Shown in pieces: positions 46,218-59,440 of a stretch of DNA of 64,000 nucleotides; position 1 is the first letter of the stretch; the number at the start of each line of letters is the position of its first letter. The position numbers and the translations under genes are program-made. Under the pieces are notes generated by a model. The model did not search any database, was not told where the DNA came from, and saw only the letters and a program-made list of their open reading frames with translations. This DNA comes from Curvularia clavata (taxonomy: Eukaryota), in assembly GCA_023920165.1 (NCBI GenBank), contig CP089281.1, positions 2,046,001 through 2,110,000 of the forward strand, read 5' to 3'.

Positions 46218-46235
46218 CGGTACAAGTATTTCCCG
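46218..46235. promoter_or_regulatory. CGG-N12-CCG putative activator site (permease / dehydrogenase-1 divergent promoter)
   Basis: CGGtacaagtatttcCCG. Confidence 0.55.
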
Positions 46236-46351
46236 CTCAGCTTGGGAGACATTTTGCATATGGTATGTCCTGACAACGCGCCTACGCTGCGATTTTGTTG
46301 GTATTCCATTCAATTCACGACTTATGAAGCCTAACCCCGATTAAGCACACC

Positions 46352-47329
46352 ATGGAGCTCAACGCAGATATTTTGCAAAGGTCATATGCTTTTGGACAAT
46401 CAATCGTTTCTGATGACGACCGCGACAAACCGCTAAAGGCATACCTCTTTGGGTATCCAATCGCCCATTCACTAGCACCGCTCCTGCACTCCACGCTTTT
46501 CAACGAGCAGAATGTTCCCTGGTCCTATACTCTCGTGGAGTCCCTCAACAAGTCAGACTTTTTATCGGAAATGAAGGCCTCAGACTGCATAGGCTCGGCA
46601 ATAACCATGCCACACAAGGTGTCTTTCATGACAGAATGCGATCGCGTGACGGACGAGGCACTTGCAATTGGTGCAATCAATACAATATTTATTCGAAAAG
46701 ACACCAAGTCCAACGCGAAGTTGTATATTGGTACAAATACGGACACGATAGGAATCAGAGAGGCATTCCTACAGAACTTCCCAGGCATCGCGTCGCAGAG
46801 CACTGACAAACCTGCCCTAGTCATTGGCGGTGGGGGCGCTTGCAGGAGCGCAATATATGCTCTGTGGAAGTCACTCAGGGCGTCGAAAATCTACCTTGTA
46901 AATCGTCTTAAATCCGAGGTGGATGTCATCATGGAATCGTTCAAAAGTACCCTGCCAGACTGCAAATTGATACACATCTCATCGGTGGAGCAAGTTCAGG
47001 GTCTGGAAACACCAGTCGTGATTGTTGGTACTGTGCCAGATATCCCTCCAACACAGCCCAACGAGATTCTTGTAAGAGACATCGTGGAGGCTATCCTGGG
47101 CCTAGGCCCGAAAGGTTTCGTATTGGAAATGTGTTACCATCCTAATCCAAACACTGAATTCTTCAGACTGGCGGTGAGAAATGGCTGGAAGGTTGTACCA
47201 GGAGTGGAAGCAATGGTCCATCAAGGCATCGCGCAGCAAGTCCTGTGGCTGGAGAAGCGACTGGAAGATGTACCAGATGCGGAGGCAAAACGTGTCATTG
47301 GCATAGAAGTTCAGAAACATTCCATGTAG
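46352..47329 (+). CDS. qutB: Quinate/shikimate dehydrogenase 1 (QutB/Qa-3 type)
   Basis: FGYPIAHSLAP, AITMPHK, IGAINT, GTNTDTIG, IGGGGACRS, LEMCYHP. Confidence 0.85.
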   Translation: MELNADILQRSYAFGQSIVSDDDRDKPLKAYLFGYPIAHSLAPLLHSTLFNEQNVPWSYTLVESLNKSDFLSEMKASDCIGSAITMPHKVSFMTECDRVTDEALAIGAINTIFIRKDTKSNAKLYIGTNTDTIGIREAFLQNFPGIASQSTDKPALVIGGGGACRSAIYALWKSLRASKIYLVNRLKSEVDVIMESFKSTLPDCKLIHISSVEQVQGLETPVVIVGTVPDIPPTQPNEILVRDIVEAILGLGPKGFVLEMCYHPNPNTEFFRLAVRNGWKVVPGVEAMVHQGIAQQVLWLEKRLEDVPDAEAKRVIGIEVQKHSM

Positions 47330-47575
47330 AATATATCTGTCGTAATTCCCAGCTACCATTATTCTCTTTTCGAGATCAAAATGCATGAAACATACTGCAC
47401 TTATTCACCCATGAATATCTTTAGTGTGCACGCATAGGGTGCTCAGTGGCATCAGACTCGAAGGGATAACTTTCACGGTCCCGTCCTTGACCCTCAGCTG
47501 CACCAGGGAGAAATGAACAGCTCAGGCCGTGCATTCTTGGATCTAGAATCCTTGCATTTTGCAGTGGCTTTCAGG

Positions 47576-47593
47576 CGGCTAGGAGTAGAGCCG
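47576..47593. promoter_or_regulatory. CGG-N12-CCG putative activator site upstream of the dehydratase gene
   Basis: CGGctaggagtagagCCG. Confidence 0.45.
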
Positions 47594-56286: not shown

Positions 56287-56794
56287 TGCTGCGCGTGGAC
56301 AACAAGGTGAAATGGAGTGGTAAAAGTGGGAGCTGCAGTGGCACAATCATTCATTTACGAGTATCGAGTGTAGAGTACTAGTATGCGCGGAGGGAGTGGC
56401 GAGTCAACTTTTGTGGGGCGCTACAGGTCTTTTCCGCTGCTGATGCAGTGTTGATTCATCCCGGACGCAGAACCGGCAACAAACGCCTGAACTATGGTCG
56501 GCTCAGAACCTCGGCACTCAAAGAACGCATGGGCACACTGTTAGAGCAGTAGAAGCGCTCACGATTGATGGGTTGCTACTGCACGTAGCTGAGATCGAGA
56601 ACATAAGGACAGGGTCGTTTTTGTGCTCATCTTCAATGTACAGAAAATGGTCGAGGGCAAGGTAAGGTTATAAGTTTCTCTCGAAACCATCGTAAAATGT
56701 TCATATTCTCGAGCCTCGCTTTATGTAAATGATACAAATATAGGCAAAGTACCGAATGAGATGATCACACACTCGACAGGAGAATTCTATTGCC

Positions 56795-59321
56795 TTACTG
56801 AGCTAGACCCGTATATCTGCGCATTATTTGGGACCGCATCACATTCTCTGGTGCGCGACGACCCGTAAAAAGCTCGAACTGCGCGATACCTTGCTCCGGA
56901 AGTACCTCGAGCCCTTGGACAGCGATCCATCCACGATTGGAGAAGTTTTGGGCCTGTTTCATCAACGGTGTCTCAGGTGTATCATACGAAAGCTGCATAA
57001 TCAGTTAGCCATGACAGTACAGCCGGAAGAATGAGTCTTACATCGATAACTACGCCCCCAGTCTTGTGTACGAACCATTGGTCTGGAATTGCGAGACTGG
57101 TAGGGCCAATTTGAGCGGAAGAAGGAACACAGGATACGATGACAGTTGGTGGATCGATGGCTATCGGCCAAGTGCTTTGCTGTGATGAAATGACTTGAAT
57201 ATCAGCTGGCCCACACAAGGGGACATCAGAAACATCCTGAACAGAAAGGTCGTCTATACTGGTGTGATCGGTAGAGTACGTCTTGCCACTGAACCTGTTT
57301 GCCAGTTCGCGCGCCCTTTCTTCCGTGCGGTTGCATACGAAGATTTTCTGAATCCCTAGGCGAATCATGCTATAGACGCACGCGTGCGCCATACCACCAG
57401 CACCAATCACGAGCGCGGTGGTATTGGTCTGGATCGCGTTGACGGGAGACAAGTGTTGACGAACGCAGTTGAAAATGCCAATCCAATCAGTGTTGTCGCC
57501 ATACAAAGCCACTATCGGGCCAGTTTCATGTCGTGAGAGCAATCCTCCGAGGCCACCCGTTCTCAAAGGAAGTAGGGTGTTGATCGCTCCAATGGCACGC
57601 GAGGACTGGCTAAGAAAATCGAGAACTGATATGATCTCTTGTTTGAATGGAGCTGTCACGCTTGCCCCTCCAAAGTTGTTGTCTCGCACCAGGCGTTTAA
57701 GTTCATTGAGTGAAGAGCTCTGAAACGTAAGGTACTTATGGGGCAGCTGAAAAGCCTGGAATGCGGAGTTGTGCATGGCAGGAGAAAGACTGGAGAGCAC
57801 GTCCGCTCCTAATATGCCGAAGAATTGGGGTTCGAAGGTATATGACGAACAGAGGGCGCTTTGAAGCTCTTGTATGGTAAGAAGCCAGTCTGAGTCATTA
57901 CCGCTATGCTGGATGCCGCCTTTTAGAATTGGATGAGTGATGGGGGTTAGGATTTGGTTGAGGACACATGAGGGCCGGCCAAGCCGACCGGTGTTGTATG
58001 CAATGACTGGAATGTCAACTTGACCGGAGAACTTAACGGAGTGGATAAATTCTTGGATGGACTGATTGTCTGTCCTCGAAGTTGCTGTTTTACAAAGCCT
58101 AGCGATGTCACAGTGAGATCTCTCCATCCTTTTCAAAATGAAACTTGTCTGTGGACTGCACCAGTGACTGGATGACGGAAGGGATTCGAGGTAATGACCT
58201 ATAATTCTAGTATGCCCTCTGGCTAACTGAATCTTGCTGATCTCGAGATCGTCGAGATGGAAATCTACCGTAAGATAGTCTGGCGCAAGGCGTAGTGCGT
58301 GTGCAACAACTTCGAGATAAACTCTACGAGCCAAAAATGCTTGAGATTTATCTGCCACCGGTAAGATGATGTGTAAGACGATTGGAAGTTGAAAAGAACG
58401 GCGCGTGACGAAATACTGCCGGGTGATTTGCGTTGCTACAGCTTGGTCAAAACCTTTAGCTGAACACAGAGGAGCGATATCAATTTGTAGCTCAACAGCA
58501 TCTGCCAGTATATCTGTTTCTATTGTTTGCTCGGCAAACGATGAAGCCTGCTCTATTGGGAGCGACAGGCAGTAGGTGAAGACCCGTTTCTCAAGAGGTA
58601 CCGAAGAGAGCGAATGTTGGGCTTTATCAATATACACTCCCGTCACTCGCTGCCTTGTGGAGAAACACCATTGAAGGAAGTCCTTTTCCACGCTCTTCAG
58701 CAGGAGTGATGGTCGTGTAGTATGATACTTGTTGTGAGTCGCCACAGACGATTCTGAGAGGTTGTAGAATTCAAGATTTGAAACGTTTCGGAATGCCATA
58801 CTGCTGCGATCTATTAGATCTGAGATGACTGCTTCACTGCAGGAGCCAATATATTGGGAGATGTCGCTTGCGTCTCGCAATATGAAGATGACCGGATGGC
58901 TTATTGAGAAGTCGCGGACCAGGTCCTGGCCAGCACCCTCGACAGATGCGGAGCCACAGACGATGACTGCGCCCTTCGGGTGCTCTTGGAGTATTGAACG
59001 TAATAGTTCCACGTCTTGGCGCCTGTACTCATTGCTCCCGTGGGTCGCAGCATATGCTGCTCTTGTCTGACCATATTTGCCATGAAATATTCTGTCCGAG
59101 TCGACTAGGCGAAAGCGGAGCGAAGTGGATGCGACGAGGGCAAGCGTGGATCTTCCTGTGCCTCTGAGACCGACTAGCAGAATGGAAGCGTCTGGCGAAT
59201 ATGTGCGACGGGGCCGCGGAAATAGGGAACCTATATCTTCTTGTTCAGGCGTGGAGCCCGCATGGTCACGTCCACGGTACAGTCCACCACAAGGTTGTGA
59301 ATCTTGTAATCGTAGCCTCAT
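56795..59321 (-). CDS. qutR: Quinate pathway repressor (QutR/Qa-1S; kinase-like, DHQase I-like and SDH-like domains), 2 exons
   Basis: SILLVGLRGTGRSTL, LRLAPDYLTVD, PVIAYNTG..LNQILTP, SLSPAMHN, GDNTDWIG, GAGGMA; intron 57041..56993; PEQGIAQFELFTGRRAP. Confidence 0.9.
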
Positions 59322-59422
59322 GGCTGTGAAGCTCTGGTGTGTTCTTGTTCATGTTTACATGGATGCGTGCCTAGGTGTGTGGATTGGGCTAATAGTCTAC
59401 CCCTCAGACTTCCCCAGCCACC

Positions 59423-59440
59423 CGGCTAAGTCCTTAGCCG
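59423..59440. promoter_or_regulatory. Palindromic activator site between repressor and activator genes
   Basis: CGGCTAAG-TC-CTTAGCCG: 8-bp perfect arms, CGG-N12-CCG spacing, GGnTAAnnnnTTAnCC core. Confidence 0.7.

Follow-up and report, generated by a model that had tools for sequence, protein, structure and literature searches.

A recurrent QA-1F-type CGG-N12-CCG element in the promoters of a second, qa-like gene cluster of Curvularia clavata

Gene content of the locus

A 64,000-nucleotide stretch of the Curvularia clavata genome (assembly GCA_023920165.1, contig CP089281.1, positions 2,046,001 to 2,110,000; hereafter the window) carries a cluster of eleven genes, between which an element made of two inward-facing triplets, CGG-N12-CCG, recurs from position 46218 to 59440 (Table 1). 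The predicted products are a permease, three dehydrogenases (DH1, DH2 and DH3) belonging to three separate clades, a dehydroquinase, a dehydroshikimate dehydratase, a putative decarboxylase, a reductase, a dioxygenase, and an adjacent repressor and activator transcribed divergently; their closest named relatives are from Pleosporales. Intact gene models were obtained for 10 of the 11 genes. The permease, decarboxylase, repressor and activator are covered by spliced RNA contigs from runs X13 and X23, two of the four runs examined out of 23; X23 is a root metatranscriptome, and X13 is merely presumed to be one of RNA. The genes were not ranked by RNA depth, and such contigs cannot show where transcripts start. 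The repressor contig in X13 runs past the stop codon of its own gene and crosses the DH3 promoter into DH3 (55967-56795), a read-through that might interfere with DH3.

Table 1. Genes of the cluster and candidate activator sites in the window
Feature	Position	Strand	Remarks
MFS sugar-porter-family permease, 539 aa	44309..46023	-	Pfam, spliced model, spliced RNA contigs (X13, X23)
Exact site, permease/DH1 divergent promoter	46218..46235		13.2 bits; weak inner match
Dehydrogenase DH1	46352..47329	+	sister clade to canonical quinate dehydrogenase
Exact site 5' of dehydratase	47576..47593		13.2 bits
One-mismatch site 5' of dehydratase	47665		8.4 bits
3-Dehydroshikimate dehydratase paralogue	47847..48863	+	49% to canonical copy on contig C4
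NTF2/SnoaL protein homologous to AGDC1/PPP2; probably a hydroxybenzoate decarboxylase, distinct subfamily	49162..49935	-	intron spliced in X13 and X23
Two exact sites	50076..50128		50076, 15.6 bits; 50111, 13.0 bits
Dehydrogenase DH2	50551..51468	-	separate clade, widespread in Pezizomycotina
Variant site, CGG-N12-GCG	51557..51574		in place in locus L020, mismatch there on the opposite half
Fe-ADH-family reductase, maleylacetate-reductase-like	51856..52935	-	putative label, from family and pairing with a hydroxyquinol-type dioxygenase on contig C3
Variant site, CGC-N12-CCG	53093..53110		16.5 bits; kept 5' of reductase in L020
Hydroxyquinol-type intradiol dioxygenase, apparent pseudogene	53291..54335	+	stop at 53300-53302; donor at 54010 reads AT
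Type II dehydroquinase	54544..54993	-	
Exact site 55133 and variant site 55215 (CGG-N12-CTG)	55133..55232		13.9 and 10.0 bits
Dehydrogenase DH3, stand-alone AROM-type shikimate dehydrogenase	55351..56286	-	TIGR01809 above cut-off
Variant site, CGC-N12-CCG	56419..56436		within block conserved in L020
AROM-derived repressor, 825 aa	56795..59321	-	shikimate kinase, type I dehydroquinase and shikimate dehydrogenase domains; spliced RNA contigs
Top-scoring site, repressor/activator divergent promoter	59423..59440		23.4 bits; 8-bp perfect arms
Zn2Cys6 activator, 691 aa, QA-1F/QutA-family paralogue	59604..61846	+	spliced RNA contigs

The element in the cluster promoters

A first-pass annotation of the window, made from the letters alone, had reported ten sites, six exact and four differing by one base, and we recovered all of them at the same positions and with the same letters, including the perfect 8-bp arms of the site at 59423. 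The sites lie 88-253 bp 5' of start codons. In the eight promoter regions, delimited from the start codons and totalling 3,269 bp, the six exact matches compare with a mean of 0.33 after dinucleotide shuffling, and none of 2,000 shuffles reached six, even with each shuffle scored at its best of 26 spacers; nor did any of 100,000 permutations of the triplet positions. The genome-wide rate (5,222 exact matches in 32.36 Mb) predicts 0.53 in the same DNA (Poisson P 2e-5). The presence and enrichment of the motif are thus confirmed. In a scan of spacer lengths, inverted triplets were enriched at N12 only; an excess of direct repeats at N13 (7 vs 0.65) proved to be a by-product, six of the seven arising from the CCGG ends of the same sites.

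The annotation had further stated that all eight promoters were covered. Exact sites are present in only five of them, and one-mismatch coverage of all eight regions was reached by 11 of 300 shuffles, so that this statement needed evidence beyond the triplets. Such evidence came from a weight matrix trained on the loci of other fungi described below, by which all eight regions hold a site of at least 10 bits, as against six such sites, none of them at 15 bits, in 170 kb of random DNA from the same genome. By such a matrix with L020 included, the ten sites score 10.0-23.4 bits. The inner match is weak for three exact sites, at 47576 (0.9 bits), 50111 (1.2 bits) and 46218 (1.8 bits), and individual sites may therefore be passengers. 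The dehydratase promoter (47592-47682) holds several extra one-mismatch sites as well as a qa-type site lacking the outer C/G, at 47639.

In the rest of the window there are only two more exact matches. The one at 30147 scores only 4.6 bits; the other (18258-18275), away from the cluster, scores 15.7 bits and stands just before a short open reading frame without an assigned family. Immediately 5' of the genes flanking the cluster, namely those for a Zn2Cys6 factor, a beta-lactamase-family protein and an alpha/beta hydrolase (39455-43722 and 62927-63982), the matrix scan found nothing that scored above 8 bits. AT-rich stretches, possibly degraded repeat DNA, lie at both edges of the cluster, at 62300-62700 past the activator and at about 44050-44400 past the permease.

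Judged by its letters, the element is a QA-1F-family site, CGG-V-W-A-A-R-NN-Y-T-T-W-B-CCG, as the first-pass annotation had proposed. Here and below, comparisons with Aspergillus, QA-1F and characterised enzymes draw on PMC10512348, PMC12610400, PMC10832562, PMC7862292, PMC9204233, PMC6859608, PMC3114802 and bioRxiv 10.1101/184242. The published QA-1F consensus GGRTAANNNNTTATCC agrees with the core of the sites. Comparison by eye with the elements listed in PMC3114802 showed that the inner 16 bases of the site at 53093, taken on the minus strand, equal a listed element pattern, and that 8 of the 20 window half-sites are identical to listed half-sites. The sites also have the 16-bp GG-N12-CC core with TAA/TTA-like arms, and one of them (59423) occupies the divergent activator/repressor promoter, as is typical of these response elements.

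Conservation in other fungi

A metagenome scan with a DH2 alignment returned at least 63 loci, of which 24 were taken as fungal loci of the cluster type and 36 of the other 39, all non-cluster shikimate-dehydrogenase loci, served as controls; all counts from these loci are among the matches listed. In 56 upstream regions (24,181 bp), the N12 spacer gave 31 matches in 30 regions, compared with 1-10 for the other spacers from 4 to 21, and no N12 excess was seen in the 36 control loci. Exact upstream sites are carried by five of six activator genes and four of five repressor genes in the other loci. For an out-of-sample test, L020, the closest orthologous locus, and a near-duplicate, L026, were dropped, and a matrix built from the ten window sites only was applied to the remaining regions: 37 of 51 homologous regions contained a site of at least 10 bits (2.05 on average and at most 5 in 20 shuffles). 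Taken by themselves, the inner 12 bases tell 30 exact sites in promoters apart from 24 elsewhere (P 1e-5); the flanking bases of the sites in other fungi are nearly free of information. The site is thus conserved, among others, 5' of homologues of the decarboxylase, the reductase and the dehydrogenases, in line with what the first-pass annotation had named as a check of its proposal. For the permease, none of four promoters in other loci had an exact site, an unreliable result given that the starts were guessed and two of the matches are only 25-26% identical.

In L020 itself all four testable sites (56419, 59423, 53093 and 51557) are in place, CGC half-sites included, which argues that the three one-base variants among them were selected and are not noise. 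The possibility that the whole pattern is an effect of chance or base composition draws on the one-mismatch coverage reached by some shuffles and on the weak inner matches of three exact sites. The absence of any shuffle with six exact sites, the specificity for the N12 spacer, the conservation in L020 and the rarity of high-scoring sites in random DNA all speak against it, and for the set of sites as a whole it is refuted by the out-of-sample conservation; we assign it a negligible probability.

The gene content recurs together with the sites. L024 and L041, which are distant loci, combine DH1, DH2 and DH3 with the decarboxylase and the dehydratase, and a core of two shikimate-dehydrogenase-domain genes, the NTF2 gene, a DSD paralogue and the activator/repressor pair is also present in L022, L024 and L041. 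In L023, L025, L028 and L036, DH2 adjoins a dehydroquinase and either a canonical-type quinate dehydrogenase or a decarboxylase, and the two types of cluster thus partly mix in other fungi.

A second cluster with its own regulators

Rather than a qa cluster enlarged by further genes, the locus is a second, paralogous cluster: the C. clavata genome has a canonical qa cluster on contig C4 and, on C1, an activator/repressor pair standing alone, in addition to the window module on C8. The window activator is only 27-28% identical to each of the C4 and C1 activators and is not an orthologue of the former, as it falls into a separate clade of 78 members (support 0.96; FastTree, 178 sequences, the named QA-1F and QutA sequences not being included). 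Five locus activators outside this clade are partial pieces on long branches, whose placement was not relied on. Twenty protein clusters were looked up for names of the activator's relatives and yielded only hypothetical names or none. No inositol monophosphatase-like gene (qa-x/qutG) was present among the open reading frames of the window, whereas one read by eye as this gene sits in the C4 cluster.

We consider it probable that the activator/repressor pair of the cluster controls a hydroaromatic-acid catabolic regulon through these sites. The element would be bound by a QA-1F/QutA-family Zn2Cys6 dimer that recognises two CGG triplets facing each other across 12 bp, the inner arms being rich in A/T, and the adjacent activator is its likely main reader in this cluster. 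As in the qa, qut and tan modules, the AROM-derived repressor would restrain the activator until a hydroaromatic inducer binds, upon which one or two sites per promoter would co-induce the permease, the three dehydrogenases, the dehydroquinase, the dehydratase, the decarboxylase and the reductase. The position of the strongest site between the repressor and the activator implies autoregulation.

A set of observations weighs against naming the window activator as the reader. The same matrix finds sites in the promoters of the C4 qa cluster and of the C1 module. It also finds them in all four promoters (12.8-17.0 bits) of a DUF3500/monooxygenase cluster on C3, in the divergent promoter of prcA-like and cmcA genes (13.6 bits, G000:C2:2002334; the cyclase matches 1jof), 5' of one of three CoA-transferase genes (21.5 bits, C3:1288260) and upstream of a thiolase gene (20.9 bits, C1:4053562), the last having been found by pattern search and not pre-chosen; the labels kstA and kctA for the CoA transferase and the thiolase are tentative. 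Moreover, loci whose activators are only 26-28% identical carry the same motif. The motif is therefore family-wide, spanning qa, gallate and beta-ketoadipate promoters, and by itself cannot name the activator; since the sites of other modules are found by one matrix, it is plausible that the other two activators also read the window sites. A stricter genome-wide pattern gave 44 places, of which 41 were inspected, and most are noise, as 24 of the 41 lie within long open reading frames. A FAH-family match at C3:2011127 (20.9 bits) has no catabolic neighbours. The DUF3500 cluster (G000:C3:3066050-3072600; L173, L174), which also includes an FAD monooxygenase and an MFS gene, resembles the gallate (tetrahydroxybenzene) cluster and is a candidate TanR-type regulon. 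According to the A. niger studies, deletion of the repressor gene qutX induces prcA, kstA and kctA, and a paper of 2025 speculates that the quinate activator directly binds protocatechuate-pathway promoters; the sites 5' of prcA/cmcA, the CoA transferase and the thiolase bear on this speculation.

The outer base of the sites was considered as a possible discriminator. With this base masked during site selection, C occupies 12 of 16 half-sites in the window and 2 of 8 in the qa cluster on C4 (Fisher P 0.03), and the window sites thus keep the outer C/G more often than those of the C4 cluster, but with 6 of 8 the gallate-like cluster is not separated from the window. The zinc-cluster loop of Gal4 contacts the triplet, and in this recognition loop the window activator is unlike those of C4 and C1. 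These data are suggestive only of an outer base that might insulate the regulons from one another.

The sites could accordingly be read mainly by the canonical qa activator or by that of C1, the cluster being a cross-regulated annex and its own module minor or redundant, as the presence of the motif in all three modules and the identity of one window site with a listed QA-1F element would allow. Two lines of evidence make this unlikely. The window activator and repressor are intact and transcribed, and the best site lies in their own promoter. For A. niger, papers of 2021 and 2025 list a fourth QA-type activator/repressor module of unknown function. Beside its activator/repressor genes 07604/07605 stand the orphan genes NRRL3_07600-03, which comprise a pair with shikimate-dehydrogenase domains, one NTF2 gene and a paralogue of dsdA, and neither repressor deletion switches this cluster on: NRRL3_07600-05 do not exceed about 2 transcripts per million (TPM) with fructose or quinate or when qutX is deleted, and the five genes checked in the tanX deletion (NRRL3_07600-04) are at 1.3 TPM or less, in contrast to dqdA, which reaches 4,196 TPM. 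By analogy, this silence points to insulation and supports control of the window cluster by its own module. It is thus adjacency and A. niger expression, rather than the motif, that assign the sites to the window activator. The first-pass annotation, which had placed the decarboxylase, the reductase, the dioxygenase and all three dehydrogenases in the regulon of this activator, is therefore partly supported: its promoter sites are borne out for the decarboxylase, reductase and dehydrogenases, while the dioxygenase is an apparent pseudogene and the activator is not assignable from the motif.

The dioxygenase

The reading frame of the hydroxyquinol 1,2-dioxygenase gene is not intact. Codon 4, which encodes Gln in 6 of 10 homologues compared, is an in-frame stop, and the intron donor reads AT, where both paralogues in the same genome have GT at the same intron; the gene apparently is broken. 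The dead donor is crossed by two DNA contigs, each of which has a single unlisted difference, and a strain-specific lesion and an assembly error are both possible. The lack of RNA contigs over 53752-54348 in X13 and X23 was not counted as evidence. Full-length close homologues exist, and in Colletotrichum jinshuiense the adjacent tags 001403, 001405 and 001406 are the activator, DH2 and the dioxygenase. The dioxygenase was therefore once part of the cluster, though in this genome it seems to be dead. Because the 53093 site persists in L020, where the reductase has no neighbouring dioxygenase, the reductase alone suffices to explain this site.

The putative decarboxylase and the pathway

The NTF2/SnoaL protein has equivalents of the AGDC1/PPP2 residues Trp35, Arg39, Asp40, Thr60, Trp61, His86, Tyr150 and Gln192, that is, the His86-Asp40 dyad, the tryptophan clamp and Arg39/Thr60/Gln192. 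One defining feature fails and counts against the assignment: the potassium site Glu88, the loss of which inactivates AGDC1, is absent, being Cys in the window and Cys or Ile in all six readable loci. In all seven loci compared, the cluster decarboxylases have Val146 (protocatechuate-type) together with His148, unlike AGDC1 or PPP2. The protein is a probable decarboxylase working like AGDC1/PPP2.

We tentatively propose, with confidence just short of evenly balanced, that a quinate/shikimate-like acid other than quinate is converted via protocatechuate and then catechol or hydroxyquinol to 3-oxoadipate. The dehydrogenases would funnel this acid to dehydroshikimate and then protocatechuate, which would be decarboxylated to catechol or oxidised to hydroxyquinol by a monooxygenase encoded outside the cluster, and the dioxygenase and reductase would take the ring product to 3-oxoadipate; in this strain, the paralogous dioxygenases on C1 or C3 may substitute for the broken copy. 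For the reductase/dioxygenase pair on C3, the match reaches only 8.9 bits. A 22.5-bit site (G000:C7:1617610, L092) precedes by about 640 bp a phenol 2-monooxygenase-like gene, which could supply the missing hydroxylation.

Under the same regulation, the substrate may carry one more hydroxyl than a quinate/shikimate-type acid, in which case the dehydratase would yield 2,4,5-trihydroxybenzoate and the decarboxylase hydroxyquinol directly, with no monooxygenase. Such a route would account for the association of a hydroxyquinol-type dioxygenase and a reductase with the cluster. Reductase homologues with their own site are present in L020, L031 and L035, and the C. jinshuiense neighbourhood and the Val146/His148 combination of the decarboxylases also speak for this route. 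We know of no abundant natural substrate with the extra hydroxyl, however. The A. niger version of the cluster has neither dioxygenase nor reductase, and the Blastobotrys enzyme Acdo1p cleaves catechol and hydroxyquinol alike, so that the dioxygenase need not mean hydroxyquinol; we regard this route as possible but not likely.

Acdo1p also cleaves pyrogallol, and the enzyme that follows it is reported as unidentified, which leaves room for a gallate branch under the same regulation: DH3, an AROM/AroE-type enzyme, would oxidise dehydroshikimate to gallate, decarboxylation would then give pyrogallol, ring cleavage 2-hydroxymuconate and the reductase 2-oxoadipate. Three points render this branch quite improbable. 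At position 146, where Tyr binds gallate, the decarboxylase has Val, as does PPP2, which prefers protocatechuate; the second quinate-like cluster of A. terreus is scarcely expressed on gallate; and a separate gallate cluster is present on C3 of this genome.

Implications

Relative to the tentative route via protocatechuate, a broader view would see in these clusters a widespread undescribed pathway acting on a cyclitol acid of plants or microbes that is not quinate, in which three stereo-differentiated dehydrogenases and a potassium-independent decarboxylase lead to hydroxyquinol without a monooxygenase and paralogous activators are insulated by one outer base and by inducer-specific repressors; we regard this as a doubtful speculation. 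We found no description of the regulon in a literature search that covered subscription journals poorly. For clusters of this type, the motif supplies a list of candidate targets, and deletion of the repressor combined with a substrate screen would reveal the inducer. Three paralogous activators with near-identical sites in one genome constitute a compact test of regulon insulation, which is relevant to Q-system tools.

Comparison with known systems

By gene content, the window cluster is a larger version of the A. niger orphan gene set. A. niger NRRL3_07600-07605 and the second quinate-like cluster of A. terreus (ATEG_07672-07676) share with it two shikimate-dehydrogenase-domain genes, an AGDC1-homologous NTF2 gene, a dsdA paralogue and an adjacent activator and repressor, and compared with the A. 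niger module the window adds the permease, a third dehydrogenase, the dehydroquinase, the reductase and the dioxygenase. NRRL3_07605 is reported to have no detectable PF01487, whereas the window repressor has this domain, and caution is due in speaking of orthology on a match by gene content.

The TanR/TanX gallate module and the 1,2,3,5-tetrahydroxybenzene cluster share the regulator architecture, and the DUF3500/monooxygenase cluster of C. clavata bears the same motif. The tan module of A. niger is not linked to its targets, a description that here fits the lone C1 module and not the window pair; the C1 module is probably TanR-like.

The type of site itself has long been known. With the N. 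crassa qa cluster and its QA-1F element (QARE, QUAS) and with the Aspergillus qut clusters, the window shares the 16-bp GG-N12-CC core with TAA/TTA arms, the divergent activator and AROM-derived repressor, the permease, a dehydrogenase, the type II dehydroquinase and the dehydroshikimate dehydratase. Unlike qa and qut, it has no qa-x gene and has three dehydrogenases, the decarboxylase, the reductase and the dioxygenase; it is an uncharacterised variant cluster.

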